Below, piece after piece: positions 7,534 to 64,000 of a stretch of DNA of 64,000 nt; within the stretch, counting starts at the first letter, position 1, and each line of letters begins with the position of its first letter. Location: contig JBBIIO010000006.1 in the NCBI GenBank assembly GCA_037446435.1, positions 1,633-65,632 of the forward strand, in the 5' to 3' direction. The notes beneath the pieces were generated by a model. It worked only from the letters and a program-made list of their open reading frames with translations. It had not been told where the DNA came from and made no database searches. The position numbers and the translations under genes were made by a program. This DNA comes from Armatimonadota bacterium. GTDB lineage: Bacteria; Armatimonadota; Fimbriimonadia; Fimbriimonadales; ATM1.

Positions 7534-7538
7534 ATGGG

Positions 7539-39419: not shown

Positions 39420-39443
39420 CCCCCGACGCGGTGCCGGGTCGTG

Positions 39444-44420: not shown

Positions 44421-44426
44421 ATTATG
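44421..44426 (-). promoter_or_regulatory. -10 box CATAAT, 8 nt upstream of GTG 44412
   Basis: Plus strand reads attatg at 44421-44426. No SD. Confidence 0.4.
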
Positions 44427-44480
44427 CGAGACGCATGCATCCCCGCGACTCTGCCGGGGCGAGAGCGCCCGGCCTGCGGG

Positions 44481-44486
44481 TATGAT
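44481..44486 (+). promoter_or_regulatory. -10 box TATGAT, 6 nt upstream of GTG 44493
   Basis: Read directly from the sequence. Supports GTG 44493, which gives the signal peptide VRRLLLSLACLPLLHASAQ, over the ORF-track start 44424. Confidence 0.4.
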
Positions 44487-44492
44487 GCGCCC

Positions 44493-46475
44493 GTGCGCCG
44501 GCTGCTCCTCTCCCTTGCCTGCCTGCCGCTCTTGCACGCCTCTGCGCAGCGAACCCGCGAACTTCCCGCCGTGCGGCTCGAGCCGCCGCCCACCGTTGAC
44601 GGTGTTGTGGAGGCGGAAGAGTGGTCGTCCGCCGCTCGGTCGGAAGGCTTCGTTGACCGCTTTAGCGAACGCCCCATCGAGGGTTTCAATACGGTCGTGT
44701 ACTCCGGCTACACCGACGAGGGAGCGTACTTTGCCATCGTCGCCTTCGACCCCAGCCCTGCGCTGATTCGCGCCACCGAGTACCGTCGAGAGGGGAACCT
44801 GTCCGCCGACGATACGCTCAGCATTGACCTGAACCCATTCGGGACGTTTGACGACGAGGACTTTAACACCTTCACGGTCAATCCGCTTGGCGCAACCAAT
44901 TCACAGTTCGCAGGCGGGCGCGCCGCCAAACGCGAGTGGCAGGGCGAGTGGGTCGCGCTCGCACGCGTGACTGAACAGGGATGGGAGGCAGAGATCTTTA
45001 TCCCGTGGCGCATCTTGAGGGTACCCGAGGAAGGCACGCACACGATGACGCTCAACTTCGAGCGGCGCGTTCCGCGGGCGCAACTCGAACTGCACTGGTC
45101 GAGCCTCGGCCCGGAGCGGCTTTCAGAGAACACCGGAAGGTGGGTCGGTGTGGAACTGCCCCATGTCCCTCAGCCGCGCATCCTTCAACTGCTTCCCTTC
45201 ATCGTCGCCGGCGTGGATGACGACAAGGGCACGTCTATTCATAGCGGCGTGGACGGCAGGATGCAGTTCGGCCGAGGGCTAACCGGCTTGTTGACCATCA
45301 ACCCGGACTTCGAAAATGTCGAGAATGCCGTGGTGGGCATTGACTTCTCTCGCTTCGAGCGCCTGGCCGATGAGACACGGCCGTTCTTCACCGAGGGCGA
45401 GGACTTTTTCCGCTTTGGTGGCATGTCGGTGAGAATGTTCGCCCCCCAACGGATCGAGCAGATTGACACCGGCTTGAAGGCGTTCGGCAAGTTCGGTGCC
45501 GAGTCGAGCATCAGCGCGCTGCTAACGCAGCGCTTCGGACGAGAAAAGGCAGCGGTGCTTCGGTACCAACGAGTTTGGGGGGCGAACGCGGACCTGACGT
45601 TCGGCTATGTCTTGTCTGACGACGAGGACATCACGAACCACGCCTTCGGCGTTGACGGTCGGTATCGCCTCTCCGAGCAATGGACGGCCACCGGCCGCTT
45701 CGGCGCCACCGATGACAGCGACGAGGGCAGCGGTTACCGCTCCGACGTCAGCGTCTCCTATCGTTCGGGCGCGATGACCGTCGGAGCAGGGTGGCAACGA
45801 ATTGACCCCCAGTTCCTGCCGCGTCTGGGCTTCGCGCCTCGGCGCGGGTTCCAGGGCGGCGAGGCGTTCGGCTTCTACCGCCGCTCGTACGACTCGGGCG
45901 CGCTCGCGGAGGTCGAGGCCAACCTGTTCGCAAACTCGCGCAGCGACGTGGAGACGGGCGGGCTGTTCGAACAGTCGGTCTCCGCAGGGTTCGAAGCGTC
46001 CTTCCGCAAAGGTCCGCGCGTTGAGGTTAGGCACAACAACAGCACCTTCCCCGACCTGGCAGACATCCGGACAAACGTTGAAGTCGGCTACCCAAGCGAC
46101 GACCCGATTCGCAACGGCGAACTCGAATATACATTCGGAACCATTGGCGGCGAGCGGTATGAGGAAGTTGGCGTGTCGGCGAGGTGGCGCTTCCTATGGG
46201 GACTGAGCGCGTCGGCTTCTCTGCAGTTCGTGTCCTTCGAGGGTGAGCGCGAAGCGCAACACGTGTTCAACCTGAGTTATGAATTGAGCGAGTTCCAGTC
46301 CGTTTTGGCGCGGGCGATCTTCCGCGATGATGAGTGGAACGTCTATGCCGCTTACCGCTTGTCCGGCGACTTCGGGCCGGAGTACTTCGTCATCATCGGC
46401 GACCCTAACGCGCGCACGTTCCGTTCTCGCGTTGCGCTGAAGGTCGTCGTGCCGTTCGATCTCATCCTGGACTAG
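44493..46475 (+). CDS. exported CBM9-like / DUF5916-family protein, putative
   Basis: Signal peptide, then an N-terminal PPTVDGVVEAEEWSSAA motif typical of CBM9-like domains, then a long beta-rich region. Family recalled from memory. Confidence 0.65.
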   Translation: MRRLLLSLACLPLLHASAQRTRELPAVRLEPPPTVDGVVEAEEWSSAARSEGFVDRFSERPIEGFNTVVYSGYTDEGAYFAIVAFDPSPALIRATEYRREGNLSADDTLSIDLNPFGTFDDEDFNTFTVNPLGATNSQFAGGRAAKREWQGEWVALARVTEQGWEAEIFIPWRILRVPEEGTHTMTLNFERRVPRAQLELHWSSLGPERLSENTGRWVGVELPHVPQPRILQLLPFIVAGVDDDKGTSIHSGVDGRMQFGRGLTGLLTINPDFENVENAVVGIDFSRFERLADETRPFFTEGEDFFRFGGMSVRMFAPQRIEQIDTGLKAFGKFGAESSISALLTQRFGREKAAVLRYQRVWGANADLTFGYVLSDDEDITNHAFGVDGRYRLSEQWTATGRFGATDDSDEGSGYRSDVSVSYRSGAMTVGAGWQRIDPQFLPRLGFAPRRGFQGGEAFGFYRRSYDSGALAEVEANLFANSRSDVETGGLFEQSVSAGFEASFRKGPRVEVRHNNSTFPDLADIRTNVEVGYPSDDPIRNGELEYTFGTIGGERYEEVGVSARWRFLWGLSASASLQFVSFEGEREAQHVFNLSYELSEFQSVLARAIFRDDEWNVYAAYRLSGDFGPEYFVIIGDPNARTFRSRVALKVVVPFDLILD

Positions 46476-49817: not shown

Positions 49818-49829
49818 CGTACTACTCCG

Positions 49830-50804
49830 TTAAAACGTCTCCCCCAGAGGCGAGCGAACGACGGCGGCGCCTGATCTTAGGGACAGGCCGCGCTCGTCGA
49901 GTTTCTGCTGCACCTCTTCCATCGCCTTCTTACCGAAGCCGGGGATGCACTCGAGGTCGTCTTCGGTCTTACGGACGAGGTCCCGCAGGCTTTCGATCTC
50001 GGCGCGCTTGAGGCAGTTCAGCGTTCGCTGGCTAAAGTCCATCTCCTCAACGCGGATGTCGGGCACGGAGAGGTCTTCGTCGCTGATCTCCTCGAGCGCG
50101 CCCATTGTAACGTCCATCGAGCCTTCACCCAACTCGAAGAAGAGGCGGACAAAGTTGTCGAGGAATGAAGCTGCTTGCTTGATGGCGACGTCAGGGCTGA
50201 CCGAGCCGTTGGTCCACACCTCAAGCGTCAGTCGGTCGTAGTCGGTGCGCTGCCCCACGCGGGTCGCCTCGACGATGTAGTTCACCTTGCGAACCGGCGT
50301 GAACTGGCTGCCCATCGGCATGACGCCGATACGACCGCGATAGTTCTCCTGCCTCTCGGGGGGCGTGTACCCGGTGCCCCAGCTCACGAACAGTTCCGCG
50401 TAGAGGCTTGATCCCTTGTCGCTCAGCGTGCAGAGGTAGCAGTCCGGGTTGACGATCTCGATGTTGTCCGGCGTCTGGATGTCGGCGGCGGTTACGCGGC
50501 CAGGGCCTTTCACATCGAGCAGCATCTGAAAGTCCTCCTCCGGCGGCCGGTCGCTGTTCACCCGTATCGCCACATCGCGAAGGTTGAGCATGAATTCAGT
50601 CATGTCCTCCTTCGCGCCGGGAATCGGTGCAAACTCATGGAGGACCTTCTCCACTCGGACGGCGACGACGGCTGCTCCTGGGATGGAGCTCAGCAGCATG
50701 CGCCGCATGGCGTTGCCGATCGTCTGCCCGTAGCCGCGTTCAAGCGGCGTGACAACAAACTTGCCGTAATTCTGCGTCAGTTCGATCGTTTGGATGTCTG
50801 TCAT
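49830..50804 (-). CDS. rpoA: DNA-directed RNA polymerase subunit alpha
   Basis: 324 aa. NTD motif GYGQTIGNAMRRMLLSSIPG and CTD motif LNCLKRAEIESLRDL. Confidence 0.95.
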   Translation of the reverse strand: MTDIQTIELTQNYGKFVVTPLERGYGQTIGNAMRRMLLSSIPGAAVVAVRVEKVLHEFAPIPGAKEDMTEFMLNLRDVAIRVNSDRPPEEDFQMLLDVKGPGRVTAADIQTPDNIEIVNPDCYLCTLSDKGSSLYAELFVSWGTGYTPPERQENYRGRIGVMPMGSQFTPVRKVNYIVEATRVGQRTDYDRLTLEVWTNGSVSPDVAIKQAASFLDNFVRLFFELGEGSMDVTMGALEEISDEDLSVPDIRVEEMDFSQRTLNCLKRAEIESLRDLVRKTEDDLECIPGFGKKAMEEVQQKLDERGLSLRSGAAVVRSPLGETF

Positions 50805-50807
50805 GGC

Positions 50808-51446
50808 TTACCTTGTGTAGAACTCGACGATCAACTGCTCGTTGATGTCGTTCTGCACCTCTCCGCGCTCGGGTAGGCGCAGCACCTTGCCGTCGAAGCT
50901 CTCAGGGTCGAGCGAGAGCCAACTTGGGATGTTCGCCGTGGCGACCGCTTTGGTTGCCTCCTCGACGAGCTTTGTCTCTCGCTTGGACGGATGCAACCCA
51001 ACGACGTCGCCGGGTCGGGTCTGGAAAGAAGCGACGTTCGTTCGCCCGCCGTTTACGTTGAAGAAACCGTGGGAAACCATCTGCCTCGCCTGCCCACGCG
51101 AAGACGCCCAGCCGAGGCGGAAGACGACGTTGTCCAGGCGCGTCTCGAGCAGTTGAATCAGGTTCTCGCCCGTTACGCCACGCCGTCGAGACGCCTCTTC
51201 CATGTACGACGAGAACTGCTTCTCGCGAAGGAGGTATTGCCGCTTCAGCTTCTGTTTCTCAAGGAGTTGCTGCCCGTACTCGGTGGGGCGGCGGCGCGAT
51301 GCCTCGTCGCCGTGCTGGCCGGGCGGCTTCTTCCGCGCTTCGCGCTCCATAGCGCACTTGCGCGTTTGGCAACGCGCGCCCTTGAGCATCAGTTTCTGCC
51401 CGGCGCGGCGGCAATAGCGGCACTTCGATGTCCAGATGACTGACAT
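50808..51446 (-). CDS. rpsD: 30S ribosomal protein S4
   Basis: 212 aa. N-terminal Cys cluster CRYCRR...CQTRKC and an S4 domain. Confidence 0.95.
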   Translation of the reverse strand: MSVIWTSKCRYCRRAGQKLMLKGARCQTRKCAMEREARKKPPGQHGDEASRRRPTEYGQQLLEKQKLKRQYLLREKQFSSYMEEASRRRGVTGENLIQLLETRLDNVVFRLGWASSRGQARQMVSHGFFNVNGGRTNVASFQTRPGDVVGLHPSKRETKLVEEATKAVATANIPSWLSLDPESFDGKVLRLPERGEVQNDINEQLIVEFYTR

Positions 51447-51455
51447 GGCTGTTGA

Positions 51456-51866
51456 CTACACTCTCCTCTTCTTCGGCGGGCGGCAGCCGTTGTGCGGCAT
51501 CGGCGTAACGTCGCGAATGCTGTTGATGGTTAGCCCACTGGCTTGAATCGCGCGGATTGCCGTCTCGCGACCGCCGCCGGGGCCTCGCACCCAGATATGC
51601 ACTCGCTTCACGCCGTGCTCGGCAGCGCGTCGCGCTGCGTCTTCCGCGGCTACCTGAGCGGCAAACGGAGTCCCCTTCCGGCTTCCTTTGAAGTTCACAC
51701 GCCCTGCGCTGGACCAAGCGATGACGTTTCCCTGAGGGTCGGTGAAGGTTACGATGGTGTTGTTGAATGAGGCTTTGATGTGGGCGACTGCCTCAAGGAC
51801 GTTCTTTGTGGCCTTTGTCTTCGTCTTGGTGGTCTTGCTCGCGCTCTTTGTCGGTTTTCTTGCCAT
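51456..51866 (-). CDS. rpsK: 30S ribosomal protein S11
   Basis: 136 aa. [16 protein letters not shown]. Confidence 0.95.
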
Positions 51867-51884
51867 GCTACGCTGCTCCTCGCC

Positions 51885-52262
51885 TTACTTGGTTACCTTC
51901 TTCTTGCCGGCGACGGTCTTCTTCGGTCCCTTGCGCGCTCGCGCGTTGCTTCGCGTTCTTTGTCCTCGTGTCGGCAGGCCTCGGCGATGCCGCAGTCCCC
52001 GGTAGCAGCCGATTTCGATGAGGCGGCGGATGTTCTGCTGCACCTCGCGCCGCAGGTCGCCCTCGACGCGGTACTCGCTTTCGATAATCTCTCTGAGTTT
52101 GGCGACCTCTTGATCGCTCAGGTCACCCATCCGGCGGGTTGCGTCCACGCCCGCCTTCTCGCAGATCTCGCGAGCCGTTGTGTGCCCGATGCCGTAGATG
52201 TAAGGAAGAGCGTACACAACGCTCTTGTTTCGAGGGAGGTCAACACCTGCGATACGCGCCAT
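51885..52262 (-). CDS. rpsM: 30S ribosomal protein S13
   Basis: 125 aa. [13 protein letters not shown]. Confidence 0.95.
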
Positions 52263-52277
52263 TCGTTCTCGTTCCCC

Positions 52278-52391
52278 CTATCCTTGCCGCTGCTTGTGCT
52301 TCGGGTTGGAGCACAGCACGCGCACGACACCATTCCGCCGCACAATCTTGCAGCGGTCGCACATCTTCTTCACGCTCGTTCGAACCTTCAT
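52278..52391 (-). CDS. rpmJ: 50S ribosomal protein L36
   Basis: Manual translation gives [37 protein letters not shown] (37 aa). GGAGAA SD. Below the ORF-track size cutoff. Confidence 0.9.
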
Positions 52392-52438
52392 TCTCAGGTA
52401 TTCTCCGTCAGGTCAATACAGCCCAAACGCAACGGATG

Positions 52439-52468
52439 AGTTTACCCGCCCGCGCTCCAGCCGGTCAA
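52439..52468 (-). promoter_or_regulatory. putative sigma70-type internal promoter upstream of rpmJ-rpsM (alpha operon)
   Basis: On the minus strand: TTGACC (52468..52463), 18-nt spacer, TAAACT (52444..52439). This gives a leader of about 40 nt to ATG 52391. Confidence 0.4.
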
Positions 52469-52474
52469 GGGCTG

Positions 52475-52723
52475 CTATCCTTTATCCCGGTACACAATCC
52501 GGCCGCGCGTCATGTCGTAGGGGGACATCTCGACCTTGACACGGTCACCCGGAAGAATACGGATCCAGTGCAGCCGCATCTTCCCGCTGATATGCGCCAG
52601 GATCTCGTGCCCGGTATCCAGCTTCACGCGGAAGTTCGTGCTGGGAAGCTTCTCCAGCACGGTGCCATCTACGATCAGGCCGCGCTCTTTGTCGCTCGTC
52701 TTTACTTTTCTTTGCCTTGGCAT
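52475..52723 (-). CDS. infA: translation initiation factor IF-1
   Basis: 82 aa from ATG 52723. [20 protein letters not shown]...[15 protein letters not shown]. About 10 extra N-terminal residues. Confidence 0.93.
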
Positions 52724-52736
52724 GATTCTCTTAGAA

Positions 52737-53498
52737 TTATGGCACATCCAGCGCAGTTAGGATGACGGGGCCGCCCTCCGTTACCGCGATGGAGTGCTCG
52801 AAGTGGGCGGACAGCGAGCCATCTGCCGTTACGACCGTCCACTCGTCCTCCAACGTCCGCACTTTCCAGGTGCCGGCGTTGATCATCGGCTCGATGCAGA
52901 ACGTCATCCCCGCCACCAGGGCGGGGCCGGAAGAGCGCTTGCCGAAGTTCGGAATCGAGGGGTCCTCGTGCAACTTCTGCCCGATTCCGTGCCCGGTCAG
53001 GTCGCGAACGACGCTGTAGCCGTTCGACTCGACGTACTGCTGCACCGCGTGCGAGATGTGCCCAACCCGATTCCCCACTTTTGCCTGCGCGATGCCCTGG
53101 AAGAGGCTCTCGCGCGCGATGTTGAGAAGGCGCTTCGCATCCTCCGCCACTTCGCCGACCGGGTAAGTCCATGCGGCGTCGGCATGGAAGCCGTCCTTGA
53201 ACGCGCCGACGTCGAGCGACACGATGTCGCCCGGGGCAAGCACACGGTCTGGGCGAGGGATTCCATGAACCACTTCGTCGTTCACCGAGATGCACACGGC
53301 GCACGGGTAGCCTCGGTAGTTCTTGAACGACGGCGTCGCTCCGCGGTCGAGAATCAACTGCTCGCCGATGGCGTCCAACTCAGCGGTGGTCGTTTTTCCG
53401 GGAACGATTGCCTCTGCCATTGCTTGAAGCGCTTCGGCGACGACTCTTCCCGACACGCGCATTCGCTCGATGTCGCTTTCGCTCTTCGTGAGGATCAC
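52737..53498 (-). CDS. map: type I methionine aminopeptidase
   Basis: 253 aa. The GTG start overlaps the adk stop (GTGA). Metal ligands lie in [16 protein letters not shown] and EPM contexts. Confidence 0.93.
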
Positions 53499-54139
53499 GA
53501 ATCAAGCACCTTCTCGATGAGCGCGTACACCTCTTCCACCTCGCCCGAGGCGTCCACATCACGCAGGAGTCCCTGCGAGCGATAGTAATCGAGAAGCGGC
53601 GCGCTGCGCTCTGCGTAAACCTGGAGTCGAGTCCGCACGGCTTCGGGGTCGTCGTCCGAGCGTATCTGCAGGCGACCGCCACACACGTCGCACGTGCCGA
53701 AGTTTCTGGGCTGGCGATTGGTCTCGTGATACGTCCCGCCGCAGTTGTTGCACGTCAGCCGACCGCTCAGTCTGTGCACTACAACCTCATCCGGCGCGGA
53801 CAAGGCAATGACGTGATCCAGCGACTTGCCGGTCGAAACGAGGTACTGATCCAGCGCCCTCGCCTGCTCGACGGTTCGCGGGAAGCCGTCGAGCAAGAAG
53901 CCTCCCACCTCGTCGGCGGCCTGAAGGTGCGTCTGCATCATGTTGATGATGATCTCGTCCGGCACGAGGTCTCCCCGATCCATGTACTCTTGGGCGAGGA
54001 GCCCGAGTTCGGTGCCTTGCTCCACCTCTTGGCGGAGGATGTCGCCCGTTGCAATCTGGCGCACGCCTTTGCGGAGTGCGATGAGTTTCGCCTGAGTCCC
54101 CTTGCCAACTCCGGGGCATCCGAGGAGGACGATCCTCAC
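53495..54139 (-). CDS. adk: adenylate kinase (Cys4 zinc lid)
   Basis: P-loop GCPGVGKGT. Lid CNNCGG...CDVCGG. Confidence 0.95.
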   Translation of the reverse strand: MRIVLLGCPGVGKGTQAKLIALRKGVRQIATGDILRQEVEQGTELGLLAQEYMDRGDLVPDEIIINMMQTHLQAADEVGGFLLDGFPRTVEQARALDQYLVSTGKSLDHVIALSAPDEVVVHRLSGRLTCNNCGGTYHETNRQPRNFGTCDVCGGRLQIRSDDDPEAVRTRLQVYAERSAPLLDYYRSQGLLRDVDASGEVEEVYALIEKVLDS

Positions 54140-54149
54140 GGCGCGCGCC

Positions 54150-55451
54150 TCACTTCACGTAGCCTCGCATCAGCAGGTTTGCTTCGATTTGCCGCATCAA
54201 GTCGAGCACCACGCTCACGATGATGAGCAGCGACGTGCCGCCGACCATCTGGACGCTCTGGATGCGCGTAATCGGCGGAATCCAATACGGCACCAGCGCA
54301 ATGAACGCGAGGAACAGTGCGCCGACCACCGTCACCCGCGTGATGACCTCGTCCAGGAACCGCTCGGTCTGCTTCCCTTGTCGCACGCCTGGAATGTACG
54401 CCCCGCTCTGCTTGAGGTTGCGAGCGATATCCTCAACGTTGTATTGAATCGCAGTCCAGAAGTAGGTGAAGAAGAAAATGAGCGCGCCGTATGCGAGTGT
54501 GCCCGTAACCCAGTGGTACCAGAACGCGCCCGGCGTCGGACTGAGGAACGCGCCGACCTCAACCCAGAAGTTGTGCCACCCCGTTCCCGGCTGGCCGAAC
54601 GAGGCGAACTGTTGCGGCAAGAAGATGAGCGCGACCGCAAAGATAATCGGAATCACGCCCGCGGCGTTCACGGGTATCGGAAGATACGACGTCTGCCCCC
54701 TCAGAACGCCAGTGCCGGTATGCCGCCGCATATGCTGGATTGTAATTCGCCTTTGCGCTTGGGTGAAGTACACGATGAGGGCTGTCACGGCGACGAAGAT
54801 GAGCAGCAGAAGCCCGACCTGCCACAACTGAACGATGCCGTTCCGCACTTCCGACACCAGCAGCTCGGTTTGGAACGGCAAGCCGACGACGATGCCGGCG
54901 AAGATCATCAGGCTGACGCCCTGTCCAATCGCCTTCTCCTGAATCTGCTCGCCGAGCCACAGCACGAATTGCGCGCCCGCGGTCCAGAACACGACGATCA
55001 TAACCTTGTCCCACATTGACAGTTCCGCCAATCCGGCTCGCAGCATGCTCATGAAGCCGATGCTTTGGAAGACGCAAAGGACGATGGTGAGCAGTTTCGT
55101 GCGCTGTGCCTGCCGCTGTCTCGCGTATTGACCGCCCTCCTGGTCCTCTCGCTTGAGCGCCGGGATGGCGACCTTCATCAACTGCATGATGATGGAGGCG
55201 GTAATGTACGGGTTCAGACCCAGCGAGAAGATGCTGAGGCGATAGATGCCTCGACCGCCGAAAAGGCCCAGCATCTGAAGCAACGGACTGTTCTTGACGA
55301 GTTCCTCGATGGTACCTGCGTCAAATCCGCGAATCGGTACGGACACTTGCAGCCCAACCGCGTAGATGCCAAAGATGGCAAAGATGAAGAGGACTCTCTG
55401 CCGGAGTTCCGGCTCATCCCAAGCCAACCGGAACGTGTCGGCGAGCCTCAC
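54150..55451 (-). CDS. secY: preprotein translocase subunit SecY
   Basis: 433 aa with 10 TM helices, in the expected position after rplO. Confidence 0.95.
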   Translation of the reverse strand: MRLADTFRLAWDEPELRQRVLFIFAIFGIYAVGLQVSVPIRGFDAGTIEELVKNSPLLQMLGLFGGRGIYRLSIFSLGLNPYITASIIMQLMKVAIPALKREDQEGGQYARQRQAQRTKLLTIVLCVFQSIGFMSMLRAGLAELSMWDKVMIVVFWTAGAQFVLWLGEQIQEKAIGQGVSLMIFAGIVVGLPFQTELLVSEVRNGIVQLWQVGLLLLIFVAVTALIVYFTQAQRRITIQHMRRHTGTGVLRGQTSYLPIPVNAAGVIPIIFAVALIFLPQQFASFGQPGTGWHNFWVEVGAFLSPTPGAFWYHWVTGTLAYGALIFFFTYFWTAIQYNVEDIARNLKQSGAYIPGVRQGKQTERFLDEVITRVTVVGALFLAFIALVPYWIPPITRIQSVQMVGGTSLLIIVSVVLDLMRQIEANLLMRGYVK

Positions 55452-55891
55452 AGACGGACGACCTCTCCTCCAGCCTTCTCAATCTTCTCGACGGCGGTAC
55501 GGCTGAACGCGTGCGCCTTCACCGTCAACTTCTTGGTCAACTCGCCGTGCCCGAGGATCTTCAATCCGTCCTTCATGTTGCCGACCAAGCCGAGTTGCCG
55601 CGCGCTCTCGGGCGTCAACTCCGCGCCGCTCTCGAGGTTCTCCTCCAACACGCCGACGTTGAGCACCGCGTACTCGATGTGATTCGGATTGCGGAAGCCC
55701 TTCTTGACCGGAAGGCGCCGGTGAATCGGAGTCTGGCCGCCTTCGAAGCGAGGGTTGATGGTGCTGCGAGACTTCTGCCCTTTCGTTCCGCGACCGGCTG
55801 TCTTGCCGATGCCGGAGCCGATACCCCGACCGACGCGCCGTTTCTTCCGCCGCGCAGCTCCGGGGCTTTTCAATTCGTGCAACTTACTCAT
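55448..55891 (-). CDS. rplO: 50S ribosomal protein L15
   Basis: 147 aa. RVGRGIGSGIGKTAGRGTKGQ. Confidence 0.95.
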   Translation of the reverse strand: MSKLHELKSPGAARRKKRRVGRGIGSGIGKTAGRGTKGQKSRSTINPRFEGGQTPIHRRLPVKKGFRNPNHIEYAVLNVGVLEENLESGAELTPESARQLGLVGNMKDGLKILGHGELTKKLTVKAHAFSRTAVEKIEKAGGEVVRL

Positions 55892-56066
55892 GGATCGCTT
55901 GGACCTCCACCATGTGGCGCACGTTGTGCAGCATCCCGCGCAACGAAGGAGAGTCTTCGTGCACGACGACTTGGTTCACCCTACGCAACCCCAGCGCTTC
56001 GATGGTTTTTCGGTTGCGCGGCTTACTGCCAATCGGACTCCGAATCAACTTGACTTGGACTTTCAT
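55884..56066 (-). CDS. rpmD: 50S ribosomal protein L30
   Basis: 60 aa. MKVQVKLIRSPIG. AAGAGG SD 6 nt upstream. Confidence 0.93.
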   Translation of the reverse strand: MKVQVKLIRSPIGSKPRNRKTIEALGLRRVNQVVVHEDSPSLRGMLHNVRHMVEVQAIHE

Positions 56067-56613
56067 TTTGAGCCTCTTCTTCTCGCACCTTCGCGAGCCA
56101 CGGCGTCACCTCTTCCGGGGTCAGCCCTCGGACGGAGGCGCGCTCTTCAGGGACCACCAACTGCTGCAAGGCGTCAATCGTCGCGTAGGCACAGTTGACC
56201 GCCGTGCGGCTACCTAACGTCTTAGCGAGCACGTCAGAGACGCCGGCGAGTTCGAGCACGACGCGAACCGCGCCGCCCGCGACGACTCCGGTACCAGGGC
56301 TGGCGGGCTTGAGCAGCACGGTCGTTGCGCCCATCTTGCCAATCGTTTGGTGTGGAATCGTTCGCCCGACGAGCGGCACGCCAATCATGTTCTTGACCGC
56401 TGCGTCTTCGCCCTTGCGGATGGCATCCGGCACACCGCGTGCCTTGCCGATGGCGACGCCGACCTTGCCGGCGTTGTCGCCGACCACAACCAGGCAGGAC
56501 CAGGACGGCGTCTTTCCGCCCTTGTGGGTCTTGCTGACGCGTCGGGTGTTGGCGACTTGCGAGTGGACACCGTTGCCCAGGTCGCGTCGCGAGCCTTGCA
56601 TTGAGAATCTCAT
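56023..56613 (-). CDS. rpsE: 30S ribosomal protein S5 with a C-terminal extension
   Basis: 196 aa from ATG 56613. VVVGDNAGKVGVAIGKARGVPDAIRKG. The reading frame runs 44 nt into rpmD. Confidence 0.9.
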   Translation of the reverse strand: MRFSMQGSRRDLGNGVHSQVANTRRVSKTHKGGKTPSWSCLVVVGDNAGKVGVAIGKARGVPDAIRKGEDAAVKNMIGVPLVGRTIPHQTIGKMGATTVLLKPASPGTGVVAGGAVRVVLELAGVSDVLAKTLGSRTAVNCAYATIDALQQLVVPEERASVRGLTPEEVTPWLAKVREEEAQNESPSQVDSESDWQ

Positions 56614-56614
56614 C

Positions 56615-56968
56615 TTAGAATCGTAGCCCTCCCTCTCGTGCGCTGTCGGCGAGTGCCGCAACACGACCGGCGTACCGATAGCCGCCTCGGTCGAACACCA
56701 CTTGAGTGATGCCCTTCTCCTTCAGCCGCTCAGCGATGCGCTTCCCGACCTCCTTCGCGCCGATGACGGCGCCGCCCCCGTTCACATCCCTTTCGAGGCT
56801 GCTGGCGTAGGCGAGCGTAACGCCCATGGCGTCGTCGATCGCCTGCACGATGATGTGGCGCAAGCTGCGATACACGCAGAGGCGTGGTCGCTCGGCGGTA
56901 CCGGCGACGCCCTTGCGCACGCGCTTGTGCCGAATCTTTCGCATCTGTTCTCGACCGTTTTGAGCCAT
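56615..56968 (-). CDS. rplR: 50S ribosomal protein L18
   Basis: 117 aa. [20 protein letters not shown] and GGYRYAGRV. Confidence 0.95.
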
Positions 56969-56969
56969 C

Positions 56970-57527
56970 TTAAGCAGTCGCCCTCTTTCCTTGCTTGAGT
57001 TTCACCACTTCGCCTTCGTATCGAATGCCCTTGCCCTTGTAGGGGTCGGGCTTGCGAATCCGTCGGATGTCGGCTGCAATCTGGCCGACCTTCTGCTTGT
57101 CAATTCCCGCGACGTAGATGCGGTTTACGCGCCCCCGCTCCTCTTGCGTCACTTCGAAGGAGATTCCATCGGGTGGCGTGATGGTTACGGGGTGGCTGAA
57201 CCCGAGGTTCAGAACCAGGTCGCGCCCCGTAACCTGAGCGCGGTATCCGACGCCGTGGATCTCGAGGCCCTTGCGGTAGCCCTCGGAGACGCCGGTAACC
57301 ATGTTCTGGATGAGCGTCCGAGCCAGGCCGTGCTGGCTTCGGTGTCGCGCCTGCTCGGTTGGCCGCTCGATGCGCACCGCACCGTCTTCGATGATCACCT
57401 TCAAATCGCCATGCACCGGCTGCGAGAGTTCGCCCTTCGGCCCCTTGACGGTTACGGAGTTGCCGTCCGACACGGTTACGGTTACGCCGCTCGGAATCGA
57501 AATCGGTTTCTGTCCAATCCGTGACAT
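56970..57527 (-). CDS. rplF: 50S ribosomal protein L6
   Basis: 185 aa from ATG 57527. [17 protein letters not shown]. Confidence 0.95.
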
Positions 57528-57531
57528 TTCT

Positions 57532-57927
57532 CTACCAGACCTCGCAGATGACCTCGCCGCCAAGACGCTGCTTGCGGGCGTCTCGGTCGGTCATCACTCC
57601 CCTATTCGTCGTTAGAATCTGAGTTGCCAGGCCGCTGCGGCGCGGCGCGAGTTCGCCGGCGCTCTTGTACACCCGCAGTCCCGGCTTGCTGACGCGGCGG
57701 ATCTCGCGCAAGATCGGTCGCCGCCTGCCGTCGTATCGCAAGTGAACGCGGATCAGGCGGAACTTGGCGTCAGACGTCGCCTCGAAGTCGGAGATGAAGC
57801 CTTCGGCCTTGAGAATCTTGACGATCTCGAGTTTGAGGCTGCTGAACGGCACGTCCACGGTCGCCAGCTTTGCGTGGCAACCGTTCCGTATTCTCGTCAA
57901 AAGGTCTGCGATCGGATCGCTGTGCAT
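57532..57927 (-). CDS. rpsH: 30S ribosomal protein S8
   Basis: 131 aa from ATG 57927. DPIADLLTRIRNG. Confidence 0.95.
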   Translation of the reverse strand: MHSDPIADLLTRIRNGCHAKLATVDVPFSSLKLEIVKILKAEGFISDFEATSDAKFRLIRVHLRYDGRRRPILREIRRVSKPGLRVYKSAGELAPRRSGLATQILTTNRGVMTDRDARKQRLGGEVICEVW

Positions 57928-57932
57928 CGTTC

Positions 57933-58118
57933 TCACCAACTCGACTTTGTAACGCCGGGCAGTTTGCCCCATGACGCAAGTTCGCGCAGGCAGATCCTGC
58001 AGATGCCGAAGTATCGGAAGTAGCCCTTCGACCGCCCGCAGATGTTGCAGCGGGTATAGGACCGAACCTTGAACTTCGGCTTCCTCTTCTGTTTCGCTTT
58101 CAAGCACTCTTTCGCCAT
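57933..58118 (-). CDS. rpsN: 30S ribosomal protein S14, zinc-ribbon type Z
   Basis: 61 aa. CNICGR...CRICLR. Confidence 0.95.
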
Positions 58119-58158
58119 AGTTTCCTACTCTTCGACGCAAACGGTCAGTATACCCAAA

Positions 58159-60228
58159 TCACCCATCGCTCTCCGCCTGGCGCTTCTTCTGGTACACCTG
58201 AATCAGCGCCTGTTGCTCGTTCATGGGCATCTCTTCGTAGTGAGAGAATTGCGCGCTGAACCGGCCTCGACCTTTAGTGATGGAGCGCAGGTCGAGCGCG
58301 TACTTCGCCATTGCAGCCATCGGTACCTGGGCACGGATTTGCTGTACCCCCGGGCTAACCATATCCATGCCCACCGGTCGGCCGCGCCGTGTGTTCAGAT
58401 CGCCCATCACGTCGCCTGTAAACTCTTCCGGGACGGTAATCTCCACGTTCAGGATCGGTTCGAGGATGGTAACGCCCGCCTGGTCGGCGGCGGAGCGGAA
58501 CGCGAGCGCGCCCGCCATTTTGAACGACTGCTCGCTCGAATCTACGTCGTGGTAGCTCCCGTCGTATACGGTGGCCTTGAAGTCCACAACAGGATGCCCG
58601 GAGACAAGGCCCTTGGTTACTACCTCGCGGATTCCCTTCTCGATCGCCGGGATGTAGTTCTTCGGAATCGCGCCGCCCACGATGCGGTCGCCGAACTCGA
58701 AGCCCGACCCACGAGGTAGCGGCTCCAACTCAAGCCAGCAGTCGCCGTATTGACCGCGCCCGCCGGTCTGCTTCTTGTACTTCCCTTGCGCCTTCGCCTG
58801 TCGTGTTATCGTCTCGCGATACGGGATCTGCGCCTCTTCGGTCGTAACGTTCACGCCGAACTTCTCCCGCAGTTTCTCGATGGCGACATCGAGGTGGATG
58901 TCCCCCATCCCTTCGATGATGTCCTGTGCGCTCTCGACGTTCCGGGTGTGTCGGAACGTCGGATCTTCGTCAACGATGCGCGCCACCGCTTGCCCCAACT
59001 TGTCCTCGTCAGCCTTAGTTTTCGGCACGATGGCGATGCGATAGATCGGTTCGGGAAACTCGATCGGCTCCAGAGAGCGCATCGCCTTGGCGTCGCAGAG
59101 CGAATCTCCGGTGCGGGTGTGCTGCAGTTTCGCCACGGCGCAGATATCTCCGGCGATGACTTTCGTCGTCGGCACCTGCTCTTTGCCTCGGGGGAAGAAG
59201 AGCGTGCCCATTCGCTCGCTTTCGCCTGTGCGCGCGTTCTTAACCGCGAGCTCCGGGGTCAGCGTGCCCTGCATGACACGCAGGTAGTTGATCTTGCCCA
59301 CGTACGGGTCCGCGGTCGTCTTGAACACAAAACCGAGGAACGGAGCGCTCGCGTCGGCGACGATGCTCTCTTCGCCGGCGACTTTCGCCTTCTCCGCCGG
59401 GCTTGGGATCGCGCCGACGATGCGGTCGAGCAGCAGTGTAACGCCCGCGCCGGTGGCGGCGCTTCCGCATAAGACCGGAATGACCTTGCCCGACGCAACG
59501 CCAACTTCAAGCCCGTGGATGACCTCTTCCTCGGTAAGCCGCTCGCCTTCAAGGTACTTCATCATCAGATCGTCGTCGCCCTCGGCGGCGGCGTCCATCA
59601 TGCGAGAGGCAGCGGCTTCAAGTTCCGACGCCATCTCCGCGGGCGGTTCGCTAATCTTCTCATCTTTCGCGCCGCCTTCGTGGACCTTCTTGTCCACCAG
59701 GTCGAGAACCCCTCGGAAGTTCAATTGGGCGCCGACCGGCAGCACCAGCGGCACGGCGCGAACGCCGAACCGCTCGTCAATCACCTTCATCGCGCCGCTG
59801 TAGTCCGCGTTCTCCCGCTCCATCTTGTTGATGAAGATGATCTTCGAAAGGCCGTGCTTCTCTGCGATGTCCCACGCGTTGTCGAAGCCCACCTCGAGCG
59901 CTGCCTGCGCGGGTGCGACGAGAATCATCGCCTCCACCACGCGGGCGACTCCGTACAGGTCACCGATGAAGTCCGGATATCCGGGGACATCAATGACGTT
60001 GATCTTGTGTCCCTTCCACTCGATCGGTATCACGGAAGCGTTGAGGCTAATCTTGCGCTGAATCTCCTGCTGGTCGAAGTCGGACACCGTCGTGCCCTGC
60101 TCGACGGAGCCAAGCCGGTTCGTAACGCCCGCGGCGTTGAGCATCTGCTCCACCAGCGTTGTTTTGCCGGCGCCGCCGTGACCGACGATCGCGACGTTTC
60201 GAATCTTGTCAGCGCTGTATTCGTTCAC
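58159..60228 (-). CDS. EF-G-family translational GTPase paralog (EF-G2/EF-G II-like), embedded in the spc operon
   Basis: 689 aa. G1 AIVGHGGAGKTT, G3 DVPGYPDF, G4 NKME, domain IV HDVDSSE. GTG start with an AAGGAG SD 12 nt upstream. Confidence 0.85.
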   Translation of the reverse strand: MNEYSADKIRNVAIVGHGGAGKTTLVEQMLNAAGVTNRLGSVEQGTTVSDFDQQEIQRKISLNASVIPIEWKGHKINVIDVPGYPDFIGDLYGVARVVEAMILVAPAQAALEVGFDNAWDIAEKHGLSKIIFINKMERENADYSGAMKVIDERFGVRAVPLVLPVGAQLNFRGVLDLVDKKVHEGGAKDEKISEPPAEMASELEAAASRMMDAAAEGDDDLMMKYLEGERLTEEEVIHGLEVGVASGKVIPVLCGSAATGAGVTLLLDRIVGAIPSPAEKAKVAGEESIVADASAPFLGFVFKTTADPYVGKINYLRVMQGTLTPELAVKNARTGESERMGTLFFPRGKEQVPTTKVIAGDICAVAKLQHTRTGDSLCDAKAMRSLEPIEFPEPIYRIAIVPKTKADEDKLGQAVARIVDEDPTFRHTRNVESAQDIIEGMGDIHLDVAIEKLREKFGVNVTTEEAQIPYRETITRQAKAQGKYKKQTGGRGQYGDCWLELEPLPRGSGFEFGDRIVGGAIPKNYIPAIEKGIREVVTKGLVSGHPVVDFKATVYDGSYHDVDSSEQSFKMAGALAFRSAADQAGVTILEPILNVEITVPEEFTGDVMGDLNTRRGRPVGMDMVSPGVQQIRAQVPMAAMAKYALDLRSITKGRGRFSAQFSHYEEMPMNEQQALIQVYQKKRQAESDG

Positions 60229-60247
60229 TTGGATCTATCGCTCCTTG

Positions 60248-60865
60248 CTACTTGTCCCTCAGCGGCATCCCCATCTTCTTCAGGAAGGCGCGGCCCTCGT
60301 CGTCCGACCGAGCCGACGTGCAGATGGTGATGTCCATACCTCTAATCTTATCGAATGTGTCGTAGTTGATCTCCGGGAAAACCAGTTGCTCCTTGAGGCC
60401 AAGCGAGTAGTTCCCTCTGCCATCGAACGACTTCGGGCTCAGCCCGCGGAAGTCGCGAAGGCGCGGAAGAACGATCGTTATCAGTTTGTCGAGGAAGTGA
60501 TACATCCGCTCGCCGCGGAGCGTTACCTTGCAGCCGATCTTGTATCCCTCGCGGATGCGGAAGTTCGAGATCGCCTTGCGCGCCGTAGTTATGACCGGCT
60601 TTTGACCTGTGATTGCGGTCATGTCGCGGACCGAGTTCTCAAGCGCCTTCGAGTCCGACTGCCCGGTGCCCACGCCCATGTTCACCACAATCTTAAGCAG
60701 CCGAGGCGCTTGCATCGGCGTGGTGTATCCGAACTCCTTTACCAGTTCCGGCAGCACAACCTGCTCGAAGTGGTCACGCAGGCGGCTGCGCGGAACCGGC
60801 GCAGGCTTGCCTGCGGCCGTCTGCTCCGTTGCTTCCTCTTGCGACTTCGTCTTTGTTTTCGCCAT
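60248..60865 (-). CDS. rplE: 50S ribosomal protein L5 with an N-terminal extension
   Basis: 205 aa. Core motif [16 protein letters not shown]. About 25 extra N-terminal residues rich in K/T/E. Confidence 0.95.
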
Positions 60866-60886
60866 AGTTCCTGTCCTTCGCTACGG

Positions 60887-61249
60887 TCAGTCTCGGTCCA
60901 CTGTCTCGCCGCTCTTCTTCGCGTAGCGCTTCAGTTTGCCTTGCTCTATCCGACGGCCGACGCGCGTGGGCTCATTGTTCATCGGGTCGACCAGCATCAC
61001 GTTGCTGATATGGATGGGGGCGGGCACGCGCATCTTCTCGCCTTGCTCGCCGACTCGCTGCGCTTTGCGATGCTTCGTTACGGCGTTGAGCGGAATCGCC
61101 TTGCCCTCTTTGTCCTTGGTGAGGCCCTCCACGACGACCTTCATCTTGTCGGGCAGGACGCGGATGACGAGCCCTCGCTCGCCCTTGTCCTTCCCCGCGA
61201 TGATCTCAACGGTATCGCCCTTCTTGATCTTCAGTTTAGGTGTCGGCAT
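60887..61249 (-). CDS. rplX: 50S ribosomal protein L24
   Basis: 120 aa. KOW motif IKKGDTVEIIAGKDKG. Confidence 0.95.
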   Translation of the reverse strand: MPTPKLKIKKGDTVEIIAGKDKGERGLVIRVLPDKMKVVVEGLTKDKEGKAIPLNAVTKHRKAQRVGEQGEKMRVPAPIHISNVMLVDPMNNEPTRVGRRIEQGKLKRYAKKSGETVDRD

Positions 61250-61252
61250 CTT

Positions 61253-61624
61253 CTAAAGCACCTCCGGCGCGAGGGAGACGATCTTCATGAACTCCTTCTC
61301 GCGCAATTCACGTGCGACGGGGCCGAAGATTCGCGTGCCGCGCGGCTCCCTGGTCTGAGGGTTGATGAGCACGCACGCGTTGTCGTCGAAGCGCAGCGTG
61401 CTGCCGTCGGCGCGCCGAATATCGCGGCGCGTGCGCACGATAACCGCACGCACCACGTCGCCCTTCTTCACCGGCATGTTCGGTGTGGCCGACTTCACCG
61501 CGCCGACGATGACGTCTCCGACTCCGCCGTAGCGTGGCTGCGAACCCTTCAGCACGCGGATGCACTGAATCTCGCGCGCCCCCGAGTTGTCGGCAACCTT
61601 CAGTCTCGAATACGCTTGAACCAT
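61253..61624 (-). CDS. rplN: 50S ribosomal protein L14
   Basis: 123 aa. [17 protein letters not shown]. Confidence 0.95.
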
Positions 61625-61888
61625 TTACTTCGCCTTCTCGATAATTCTGCTGACCCGCCAGCGTTTCTCTTTGCTGATCGGGCGTGTCTCCATAATCTCG
61701 ACCGTGTCGCCAACGCCACAGCCGAGAGCGTCGTGCGCCTTGAATCGCTTCGCCCGCAGAACCGTCTTCTTGTAGATTGGGTGCTGTACCTGGCGAAGAA
61801 CGCGCACGACGACGGTCTTCTCCATCTTGTCGGAGACGACCAAACCTTGTCGAGCCTTTCTTCTTCCGCGCTCCTGCGTTTCGTTCAT
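61625..61888 (-). CDS. rpsQ: 30S ribosomal protein S17
   Basis: 87 aa. [16 protein letters not shown]. Confidence 0.95.
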
Positions 61889-62097
61889 TGCTTCGCTTCC
61901 TCTCGCTTCTTCTCAGTCAGTACGGTAAGGATACGCCCGATGTTGTGGCGCGTTGTCTTCACCGCGGACGTGTCCTGCGTCTCGCGCAGCGCGAGACGGC
62001 GACGAAGGTCATACAGCGCGGCGCGCTCCTTCTCGACCATCTCCTCCAACTCGCGGCTGGTCTTCTCTCGCAGGTCTCGCGTCTTCAGAGCCTTCAT
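61885..62097 (-). CDS. rpmC: 50S ribosomal protein L29
   Basis: 70 aa. [13 protein letters not shown]. Found by position and motif. Confidence 0.93.
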
Positions 62098-62636
62098 TCC
62101 GTCTCCTCCGTCGTCGGCTCGGCGCTCGGCGATTCGGTCTGCTGCGCCTTGCGCTCAACGATGAACTTCGGCGGGTGCGCTTCCACGGCGGCTTCGGTCA
62201 GTCCCGAGACCTCGGCGTGATCCGGGAAGTCGTGCCGCGTTACGAACTTCACCTTGATCGGCAGTTTGTGGCTGGCACGTCGCATCGCCTCGCGCGCGAC
62301 GTCTACCGGCACGCCAGCCATCTCGAACAGGATGCGCCCGGGCTTCACCACAGCGACCCAACCTTCAGGGCTGCCCTTGCCCGAGCCCATGCGCGTCTCG
62401 GCGGGCTTCTTGGTGAACGGCTTGTCGGGGAAGACGCGAATCCACACCTTGCCGCCCCTCTTCACGTAGCGCGTCATCGCCACGCGTGCGGCTTCGATCT
62501 GCCGGTTTGTGATCCAAGCCGGCTCGAGCGCCTGAATCCCGAAGTCGCCGAAATCAATCTTCGTGCCACCCTTCGCCATTCCTTTCCTGCGGCCGCGGGC
62601 GACCTTTCTATGCTTAACTCGTTTAGGCATCAACAT
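62094..62636 (-). CDS. rplP: 50S ribosomal protein L16 with a C-terminal acidic extension
   Basis: 180 aa from ATG 62636. [11 protein letters not shown]...[12 protein letters not shown]. About 43 residues follow the conserved [10 protein letters not shown] end. Confidence 0.93.
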
Positions 62637-63432
62637 CGGCTGATTCCTCCTTCGTTTCGGTTGCGGGCGCCTCGGCCACGGGTTCGGGTGTCGGCTCGGG
62701 GGCGCGCTCCGGTTCCAGCGACGCACCGTCGGTGACGCTGCCGCCCTCGAGCTCGAAGCCGGTCGCCTGCTGCCCCTGGCGGATGCGATCGCGCAGCACC
62801 TCGCCGCGATACACCCAAACCTTCACGCCTACAACGCCGTAAGTCGTGAACGCTTCCGCCAAACCGTAATCAATGTCTGCGCGAAGGGTATGCAGCGGAA
62901 TCTTGCCCACCTTCTCCGCCTCGTTCCGCGCAATCTCCGCTCCGCCCAGGCGGCCGGAGCACATCACCTTCATTCCCCGTCCGTTGTTGCGCAGGTGTCG
63001 GCCGATTGCCTGGCGCATCGCCCTGCGGTGGCTGATGCGGCGCTCGAGTTGGATTGCAATGTTGTCGGCGATGAGTTGCGCGTCCAGTTCCGGCTGCGGG
63101 CACTCCTTCACGTCCACATGGACGACCGCCTCGGCGCCCAACTTCCGGACCATCTCCTGCAGGTTCCGACTGAGTAGCGTGATGCCCTGGCCCTGGCGAC
63201 CGATGACCGCGCCGGGGCGCGCCGCAAAGATGGTAACGCGGATGTTGTTCATCGCCCGCATGATGTCCACCTTGCTTACCAGCCCCTTGCCCAACTCCTT
63301 GCGAATGAACTCGCGAATCCGAAAGTCTACGTACAGGTGCTTCCGGTACGACTTCTTGTCCGCATACCACCGGCTGTCCGGCTCGCGGATGACTCCGATT
63401 CTAAACCCTACAGGATTGATCTTCTGACCCAA
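62623..63432 (-). CDS. rpsC: 30S ribosomal protein S3 with a C-terminal Pro/Glu-rich extension
   Basis: 269 aa. [13 protein letters not shown] and a KH domain. Confidence 0.95.
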
Positions 63433-63435
63433 TGT

Positions 63436-63978
63436 CTACTCCTTGTTTTCCTCCGGCGCGCCTTCAGCCTTCGGTTCCTCGGAGGCCTGTGCCTCCTCGG
63501 CCGGCTCGGCTTCGGCTTCGGCTTCGACTTTCGCCTCGTCGCTTACCGCCGCGTCCTCTTTCTTAGCCTTCTTCTTAGAGGGCTTCGGTGATTCGAACTT
63601 CGGCCGCGGCTTCGGCTTCGCGTTAGAGCGAGGCATCTGGAACGGCTCTCCGTCTTCGAGCACCACGGTTACGTGACTCGTGCGTCGCACGATGATGTTG
63701 CCTCTGCCCTGAGCGCGCGCCCTCATTCGCTTGAGGCGCCACCCTTCGTCCACGAGGATGTTTCGCACGATCAGGCTGTCCGGTTCGAGACTGTGGTTCT
63801 CGACTGCATTGCCCACCGCGCTGCGCAGCACCTCGCGAATGAGGCGCGCCCCCTTCGACGGGTGGTGGCGCAGTTCGGCAAGCGCGACGATCGCGTGCTT
63901 GCCCTTTACCTCGTCCGCAACCAGCCGCGCCTTGCGCGGCGGAACTCGAAGTCGCTTACCAACGGCACGTACTTCCAT
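63436..63978 (-). CDS. rplV: 50S ribosomal protein L22 with a C-terminal extension of about 70 aa
   Basis: ATG 63978 gives MEVRAVGKRLRVPPRKARLVADEVKGK. AAGGAG SD 7 nt upstream. The tail is Lys-rich, then Glu/Ala-rich. Confidence 0.93.
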   Translation of the reverse strand: MEVRAVGKRLRVPPRKARLVADEVKGKHAIVALAELRHHPSKGARLIREVLRSAVGNAVENHSLEPDSLIVRNILVDEGWRLKRMRARAQGRGNIIVRRTSHVTVVLEDGEPFQMPRSNAKPKPRPKFESPKPSKKKAKKEDAAVSDEAKVEAEAEAEPAEEAQASEEPKAEGAPEENKE

Positions 63979-64000
63979 CACTGACTCCTTTCCTTTTCTG
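63978..64000 (-). CDS. rpsS: probable 3' end of the rpsS (S19) gene, running off-window
   Basis: A frame open to the window edge ends ...EKERSQ-TGA. The TGA overlaps the rplV ATG (TGATG). Called from S10-operon synteny only. Confidence 0.3.

Follow-up and report, generated by a model that had tools for sequence, protein, structure and literature searches.

An EFG II-type elongation factor G paralog conserved between rplE and rpsN in the ribosomal-protein cluster of Armatimonadota

Results

Gene order at the locus

The gene described here, which we call X, lies in a 64,000-nt stretch of DNA (the window) from an Armatimonadota bacterium (GenBank assembly GCA_037446435.1, contig JBBIIO010000006.1, positions 1,633 to 65,632). 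It encodes a paralog of elongation factor G (EF-G) and sits inside the spc ribosomal-protein operon, between rplE and rpsN (Table 1). A sequence-only reading, made without database searches, had given the order as rplN-rplX-rplE-X-rpsN-rpsH-rplF-rplR-rpsE-rpmD-rplO-secY-adk-map-infA-rpmJ. This order is correct according to the open reading frames (ORFs) of the window and the Pfam annotation of an independent contig with 99.99% identity. The ORF coordinates also agree exactly with the same-strand frame of 689 codons that had been placed 19 nt past rplE and 40 nt before rpsN, and the AAGGAG Shine-Dalgarno (SD) sequence attributed to X is present, 12 nt ahead of its GTG. This start is backed by the homologues, whose N-termini begin at the same residue and some of which have ATG. 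The rplE of the window is 91.7% identical to the gene bearing the Ribosomal_L5 Pfam matches in the relative L086 (related loci are cited by L numbers). Because the reading frames of rpsQ and rplN abut, the S10 and spc units are fused.

The independent contig, L170, comes from the Logan assembly of run SRR11582161. It matches window positions 52515-61406 with one mismatch in 8892 nt and covers both X junctions, which recur in NCBI, JGI, ENA and Logan assemblies. Because an independent assembly reproduces both junctions, an assembly chimera, which the sequence-only reading had named as one way in which it could fail, is excluded. GC content is uniform over X and the neighbouring genes. A foreign island acquired by horizontal transfer was considered as the origin of X and rejected, since GC content and codon usage match those of the neighbours.

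Table 1. Positions of X, its neighbours, its sequence motifs and candidate promoter boxes in the window
Feature	Position	Strand	Remarks
X, 689-aa EFG II-subfamily EF-G paralog	58159..60228	minus	ORF, GTG start, TGA stop
rplE, ribosomal protein L5, 205 aa	60248..60865	minus	Immediately upstream of X; ORF and Ribosomal_L5 label on L170
rplE-X gap, 19 nt	60229..60247	minus	SD AAGGAG inside (60241-60246); promoter and terminator scan negative
X-rpsN gap, 40 nt	58119-58158
rpsN, S14, 61-aa four-Cys (zinc-finger) form	57933..58118	minus	Immediately downstream of X; ORF, ATG start
G1/P-loop AIVGHGGAGKTT, residues 13-24 of X	60157..60192	minus	Gly16 and Leu25 are EFG II type-I residues
G2/switch I RKISL, residues 58-62 of X	60043..60057	minus	Ser61 in place of Thr of RGITI
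G3/switch II DVPGYPDF, residues 80-87 of X	59968..59991	minus	Tyr84 at the catalytic His position
G4 NKME, residues 134-137 of X	59818..59829	minus	Glu137 for the guanine-specifying Asp; lineage-specific
Domain IV loop-2 tip YHDVDSSE, residues 559-566 of X	58531..58554	minus	Retained
GGGTATACT, -10-like box (GGGTATAnT class)	58147..58155	minus	Candidate internal promoter; conserved in relatives
GGGTATNNT hits	7536-7544(+), 24329-24337(-), 27852-27860(-), 39414-39422(-), 44478-44486(+), 58147-58155(-)		Pattern count

A second EF-G beside the canonical fusA

Besides X, no EF-G homologue was found in the 64-kb window, which ends in rplV, inside the S10 operon, its str operon lying beyond. These two facts would fit an X that is the sole housekeeping EF-G, moved out of the str operon. 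The relatives argue otherwise. On the JGI contig L086, which over 10 kb is 83% identical to the window in nucleotides and whose X is 95% identical, one stretch reads rpsL-rpsG-fusA(704 aa)-tuf-rpsJ-...-rplE-X-rpsN, and the same rpsL-rpsG-fusA-tuf-...-rplE-X-rpsN layout is found in L085 (GCA_035559795.1) and L089 (GCA_013112795.1). The canonical fusA that the sequence-only reading had suggested seeking near rpsL-rpsG-tuf is thus present in the same cluster in all three relatives, about 9.6 kb upstream of X. These fusA genes encode 703-704 aa and have the canonical motifs AHIDAGKTT, RGITI, DTPGH and NKMD. X shares the five domains and the conserved domain IV tips of the canonical factor, but has none of AHID, RGITI, DTPGH and NKMD, is 40% identical to the relatives' fusA and lies between rplE and rpsN instead of in the rpsL-rpsG-fusA-tuf position. 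The catalytic His is also missing from it, its score falls short of the EF-G equivalog cut-off, and genomes with a single EF-G copy always carry EFG I (Margus et al. 2011, PMC3150367). Coexistence with an EFG I gene of the str operon is also a feature of the EFG II subfamily (Margus et al. 2011, PMC3150367), and it is seen for X in these three relatives. The idea of a sole, displaced housekeeping factor is effectively refuted by the relatives' canonical fusA and keeps next to no probability. X is best regarded as a paralog and not the housekeeping factor, given the second EF-G seen in relatives.

Assignment of X to the EFG II subfamily

All five EF-G domains were detected in X by Pfam in order and above cut-offs (GTP_EFTU with G', domain II, EFG_III, EFG_IV, EFG_C), and residues 3-677 align end to end with Thermus EF-G chains (E = 3e-177). 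The best NCBIfam model is NF009381, a broad 'elongation factor G' subfamily (893 bits, E = 1e-268). Against the housekeeping equivalog TIGR00484, X scores 646.4 bits, under the curated cut-off of 659.4, while the fusA of relatives score 1085-1091. X is also under the cut-offs of two EF-G2 equivalogs, with 653 for NF009377 (cut-off 890) and 559 for NF058620, the Bacteroidota EFG2 model (cut-off 1000). X belongs to EFG II in the broad sense and not to these two narrower orthologue groups.

EFG II is defined by a relaxed G2 (xxxSx for RGITI), by six differently conserved positions and by seven more strongly selected positions (Margus et al. 2011, PMC3150367). Using the table of that study and Thermus EF-G-1 numbering, we found in X all six type-I residues (G19, L28, S64, T316, G360, K379) and all seven type-II residues (D224, V258, L272, K498, K499, E543, G633), that is, 13 of 13. 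At the six type-I positions the canonical fusA of L085 and L086 have the EFG I states A, T, T, I, A and G. In a neighbour-joining (NJ) tree of 102 sequences and 686 columns, the X-like family is separated from Thermus EF-G-1 and two Armatimonadota fusA sequences with bootstrap 100/100. Among solved structures the G domain alone matches Thermus EF-G-2 (1WDT) best, whereas full-length X scores higher with Thermus EF-G-1 (594 bits) than with Thermus EF-G-2 (454 bits). The earlier assignment of X to the EF-G2/EFG II type, apart from housekeeping fusA, agrees with the diagnostic residues, the TIGR00484 score and the phylogeny, which it had proposed as a check. X can be taken as a bona fide EFG II member, and by sequence an ordinary one. 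Database names of its homologues are 'elongation factor G', and the NCBI pipeline would give X the same name.

Weak matches to the NCBIfam tet_protect models and the metagenome-assembled source of the contig might point to a ribosomal protection protein of the Tet(M)/Tet(O) type or to chimeric junctions. This is very improbable. The score for NF012153 tet_protect is 307.5 against a cut-off of 775, domain IV of X has the EF-G tip and not the Tet-type tip, and the junctions are reproduced independently as described above.

The GTPase centre and domain IV

The motifs quoted in the sequence-only reading (AIVGHGGAGKTT, DVPGYPDF, NKME and YHDVDSSE) are all at the places given for them. X does not have the canonical translational-GTPase centre: Tyr84, Gly19, Ser61 and Glu137 stand where canonical EF-G has the catalytic His, the P-loop Asp, the Thr of G2 and the Asp of NKxD. 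Most of this is shared widely. Homologues of X were recovered at 80 genome loci from many phyla, including Clostridia, Geobacter relatives, Thermodesulfovibrionia, Omnitrophota, Chloroflexi and Actinomycetota, in line with the known occurrence of EFG II, with the same G1/G3 signature, in Clostridia, Geobacter-type Deltaproteobacteria, Chloroflexi and Actinobacteria. The P-loop xHGGxGK[TS] is common to nearly all of the 80 loci with the N-terminal part present, and the catalytic position is Tyr, Phe, Asp or Ser, never His. The G2 pattern R[KR]IS[LIV], which corresponds to the RxxS[ILV] of EFG II in place of RGITI (Margus et al. 2011, PMC3150367), is found in 117 of 120 close homologue clusters, the regular expression having no match in the other three. 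Thermus thermophilus EF-G-2 (PDB 1WDT/2DY1) has GHAGSGKTTL and DAPGYGDF and so carries a Tyr in the catalytic place, as the sequence-only reading had stated; it differs from X in its 665-aa chain and in its G4, TKLD, and is not known to lie in a ribosomal-protein operon. The G1 and G3 deviations of X are ordinary, family-wide EFG II traits, and only NKxE is lineage-specific.

NKxE is found in 118 of the 119 close homologue clusters in which G4 was located, plus many Armatimonadota/Abditibacteriota loci. NKxD is kept by other Armatimonadota in-operon loci and by nearly all other phyla, and is listed as conserved in EFG II (Margus et al. 2011, PMC3150367). A literature search for NKxE in GTPases returned nothing relevant. 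In other GTPases an Asp-to-Asn change in NKxD shifts nucleotide specificity to XTP, and the Obg-family protein YchF/OLA1, with NxxE, prefers ATP. For these reasons the fixed Asp-to-Glu change in X is worth a test of nucleotide specificity. All 120 close homologue clusters have the same domain IV tip.

Conservation and history of the rplE-X-rpsN arrangement

The sequence-only reading had asked whether the arrangement is conserved in related genomes. It is: rplE-X-rpsN occurs in 25 distinct Armatimonadota/Abditibacteriota loci, with 49-95% protein identity to X. Seven are from the genome collection (L001, L002, L008-L011, L013), four from look-ups (L082, L085, L086, L089) and 14 from metagenomes (L092-L104, L151); L083 and L084 are from the same organism as L085. 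A metagenome-assembled genome (MAG) labelled Abditibacteriota is among them. Ahead of X, all 24 in-operon relatives with the junction on the contig have a gap of 3-26 nt. Behind X, most loci have -1 to 42 nt, six have 55-113 nt, and one, with inserted repeats, has 740 nt. The 740-nt spacer, in L082 (12071-12810), has repeated segments with the same peptide-like strings in several frames and looks like a small repeat or MITE-like insertion. The ribosomal cluster of L082 begins at rplC, directly after a glycosyltransferase gene.

In the nearest sister clade, of Fimbriimonadaceae type (58-60% identity), X is standalone with its own upstream region of 170-220 nt. Bootstrap support in the NJ tree is 100 for the in-operon clade of the window, for the standalone clade, for their sister relationship and for a deeper in-operon clade. 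X has been embedded between rplE and rpsN of a fused S10-spc cluster since early in Armatimonadota/Abditibacteriota evolution. The standalone X genes share a segment about 40-75 nt before the start, TTTTGTTA(A/C)(G/C)(C/T)T ... GGTTAGGG(T/A)(T/A)CGACGC (L003 5830-6000, L004 3967-4150, L005 5816-6000), which could represent a promoter together with a 5' leader element.

Among the recovered loci, no EFG II gene of another phylum adjoins ribosomal-protein genes. Conserved genome context has been reported for EFG I only (Margus et al. 2011, PMC3150367), and the fixed place of X inside the spc operon differs from the subfamily in this respect. A literature search for an EF-G paralog in the spc operon or for Armatimonadetes EF-G found nothing. 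Elsewhere, a GTPase of about 627 aa lies directly ahead of the EFG II gene in a Vulcanimicrobiota MAG (L028 3631-5517) and a Bacillota MAG (L050 3213-5096). It has 29-31% identity to EF-Tu across the G domain, and the pair is a possible second conserved EFG II neighbourhood.

The position of X could be a neutral historical accident at a permissive junction, without bearing on what X does or how it is regulated, and an intermediate in operon break-up. Insertion followed by disconnection is the usual pattern in which the str-S10-spc-alpha cluster breaks up (Brandis 2021, PMC8046335). As in that pattern, X was inserted into a conserved cluster and some descendants have fully disconnected at the same point. 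The cluster ends exactly after rplE in Chthonomonas sp. (L087 10839-10975), where a DsbD-like gene follows, and in Fimbriimonadaceae GCA_026129715.1 (L088 10918-11031), where nusA-ylxR-infB follow; rpsN and the rest of spc must be elsewhere in these genomes. This break point is the junction that holds X in other lineages, and X is standalone in Fimbriimonadaceae. A promoter-like box past X, described below, would also make the junction tolerant of insertions. Against a neutral position, 25 loci spanning 49-95% identity keep the arrangement, the spacing of 3-26 nt to rplE is of a size for coupling, even in the otherwise rearranged L082, and the ratio of nonsynonymous to synonymous substitution rates (dN/dS) of X is as low as in ribosomal proteins. 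The inserts in the Brandis study are mostly between operons and are unrelated metabolic genes, while X, a translation factor, lies within the spc operon and has long been retained. We consider a neutral accident rather improbable.

Constraint on X

Between the window and L086 the dN/dS of X is 0.022 (dS about 1). This value equals those of rplN, rplX and secY and is below those of most neighbouring ribosomal proteins, and it sets the X lineage apart within EFG II as slow-evolving. With such a ratio X is neither decaying nor relaxed. X orthologues are 69-70% identical, compared with 76% for fusA.

Transcription signals around X

On the minus strand of both gaps we found no terminator-like hairpin and no sigma-70-consensus promoter, and the 19-nt and 40-nt gaps fold no better than shuffles (z = -0.7 and +0.8), in agreement with the sequence-only reading, which had seen no hairpin in either gap. 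Rfam gave no match over window positions 49000-64000. A structured RNA or attenuator in either gap was rejected, as the folds equal those of shuffles and Rfam is empty. Because the 19-nt gap has no room for a promoter and there is no terminator, X must, as far as these scans tell, be transcribed only by read-through from the upstream ribosomal-protein genes.

The sequence-only reading had also noted a TATACT box between X and rpsN and proposed it as an internal promoter. The box is real and lies inside GGGTATACT, although at 58147-58152, 3 nt away from the 58144-58149 given for it. GGGTATACT starts 3 nt past the X stop and ends 28 nt before the rpsN ATG. A -10-like box lies 3-8 nt past the X stop in L001, L002, L085, L086 and L089 while the remaining spacer has diverged; it reads GGGTATACT in L001, L002 and L086, GGGTATAAT in L089 and GGGTATGAT in L085. 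It has no other intergenic occurrence in the clusters of L085, L086 and L089, which are 15-20 kb long. The pattern GGGTATNNT was counted six times in the window, with 1.35 expected, and none of 100 shuffles reaches six. Two of the hits, at 39414 and 44478, lie 8 and 6 nt before starts (ATG 39405 minus; GTG 44493 plus) whose products begin with lipoprotein or signal peptides, a spacing that fits the -10 box of leaderless transcripts. This suggests that GGGTATNNT may be the -10 box of this organism and that leaderless mRNAs may be common in it. The placement of the 44478 hit also implies that the true start of the ORF called at 44424..46475 is 23 codons further downstream.

A conserved GGGTATAnT -10-like box directly after the X stop supports the proposal of an internal promoter in this gap, which in the clade of the window would likely feed rpsN and the downstream genes. 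The case is one of comparative conservation of the box, the sigma-70 consensus scan being negative. In the deeper in-operon clade the X-rpsN gaps are 0-18 nt and leave no room for an internal promoter.

Discussion

Every part of the sequence-only reading that could be tested held, and that reading is supported. We propose, with a probability of roughly 0.8, that X is a strongly constrained EFG II paralog embedded in a ribosomal operon, transcribed by read-through and acting as a constitutive second translocase-like factor with an altered GTPase centre. The operon context hints that the synthesis of X may accompany that of ribosomes and not be confined to stress, and it argues against a purely stress-induced role. 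X would be made constitutively and keep pace with ribosome synthesis, though not necessarily 1:1, and in the clade of the window the -10-like box past its stop would probably re-initiate transcription for rpsN and beyond.

The protein would bind the ribosomal factor site as a second translocase-like factor. Behind this proposal are its five-domain architecture, the intact domain IV tips (QTGGRGQYG and YHDVDSSE) and extra Lys residues of EFG II type in loop I. Its nucleotide centre is predicted to retain the elements that bind GTP and Mg (GK[TS], Ser61 and DxPG). Because the catalytic His (Tyr84), the P-loop Asp (Gly19) and the NKxD Asp (Glu137) are all changed, canonical GTP hydrolysis triggered by the sarcin-ricin loop cannot run unchanged. 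X is most likely a slow or weakly hydrolysing translocase, in line with reports on other EF-G2 proteins, and its nucleotide affinity or specificity may be altered too. Thermus EF-G-2 keeps GTPase activity, with somewhat lower poly(Phe)/translocation activity, and Bacteroides EF-G2 is a slow translocase. Mycobacterial EF-G2, in which the His is Tyr, has ribosome-dependent GTPase activity only at a minimal level, and H88Y in EF-G1 nearly abolishes GTPase activity. The Bacteroides thetaiotaomicron protein (PDB 7UVP/8DMF; NF058620) resembles X as an EF-G paralog with a non-canonical GTPase centre that is described as a slow or weak translocase, but its G1 is GSSGSGKT and its G3 DCPGS, and it is associated with starvation and not with a ribosomal operon. 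Recycling-specialised EF-G paralogs (spdEFG2, mitochondrial EF-G2/RRF2mt) are a further comparison; RRF2mt chains have AHIDAGKTT and DTPGH, unlike X.

A bolder version would have Armatimonadota EFG II as no stress back-up but a constitutive second translocase, made along with the ribosomal proteins, whose remodelled nucleotide pocket (the catalytic His and P-loop Asp lost, NKxE for NKxD) would let it work with little or no GTP hydrolysis or with an altered nucleotide preference. We offer this as a speculation that is probably wrong; if true, it would mean an energy-saving mode of elongation in the core ribosome regulon of an oligotrophic phylum.

X might instead be no translocase but a regulatory or protective factor that occupies the ribosome, in idle ribosomes, in hibernation or as an assembly checkpoint, GTP-bound and hardly hydrolysing. 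Like X, Mycobacterium smegmatis EF-G2 (PDB 9K0Z/9K10) has Tyr for the catalytic His and is a second EF-G beside the canonical one; it binds non-ratcheted 70S ribosomes and is a stress factor. The loss of the P-loop Asp and the Glu in G4 are further departures of X from a working GTPase centre. On the other hand, the domain IV tips, which translocation requires, do not vary among the close homologue clusters, Thermus EF-G-2 translocates with the same G1/G3 signature, and X, unlike the M. smegmatis protein, is wired into growth-related genes: it stands among growth-rate-controlled ribosomal-protein genes without a promoter of its own, the opposite of stress-specific expression. We regard this as unlikely, though the most credible of the alternatives to a constitutive translocase-like factor.

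Several points weigh against a constitutive second translocase with a long-held place in the operon. Since the Fimbriimonadaceae X is standalone with its own upstream region, operon embedding is not obligatory for function. The monophyly of all Armatimonadota X genes has an NJ bootstrap of only 28; a single old insertion followed by excision would be the parsimonious history, in keeping with the published 'insert, then disconnect' pattern of the cluster, but at this bootstrap it is unproven. The GTG start and the 12-nt SD spacing could give X a lower output than the ribosomal proteins. Codon adaptation of X to the ribosomal-protein set is 0.70, in the range of ribosomal proteins and about 1.2 SD above the other ORFs (0.615 +/- 0.066), a weak signal in a genome whose bias is too weak to discriminate. 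The characterised EFG II proteins differ in activity, and function is not safely transferable from them to X. To our knowledge there is no characterised translational GTPase with NKxE. Finally, we infer the canonical fusA of the window's own genome from relatives, the closest of which has 83% nucleotide identity.

The phylum-wide placement of an EFG II paralog in the spc operon, the fixed NKxE and the slow evolution of this lineage appear to be undescribed. The classification does not change: by sequence X is an ordinary EFG II member, here in a notable conserved setting. What EFG II paralogs do has been open since the subfamily was defined in 2011, and the few studied examples diverge and are linked to stress or starvation. 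The spc gene order is among the most conserved in bacteria, and the retention of X there across the phylum, under purifying selection like that on ribosomal proteins, is informative. We see in it the clearest hint from genomes to date that an EFG II protein can belong to the growth-coupled translation apparatus. In addition, X offers a test case for nucleotide use by translational GTPases, a naturally occurring Asp-to-Glu change in the guanine-specificity motif that is fixed across a large clade.

Other features of the ribosomal-protein cluster

Three ribosomal proteins of the window are long. L22 (rplV, 63436-63981) has 181 aa with a C-terminal tail rich in Lys, Glu, Ala and Pro, S3 (rpsC, 62623-63432) has 269 aa with an acidic, Pro-rich tail, and the unusually long L5 has an N-terminal extension. 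The S10 operon also contains an insertion between rpsS and rplV, two tandem ORFs of about 225-241 aa, in four of four relatives examined (L085 8551-9998, L086 8596-10001, L089 5576-7011, L082 4751-6141); the window includes only its last ~16 nt (63982-64000). A Pfam search of these ORFs gave no match. Their N-termini are signal-peptide-like, and with a mutual identity of 27% (E = 3e-5) the two are weak paralogs. The pair is a second non-ribosomal insertion in the same cluster as X.

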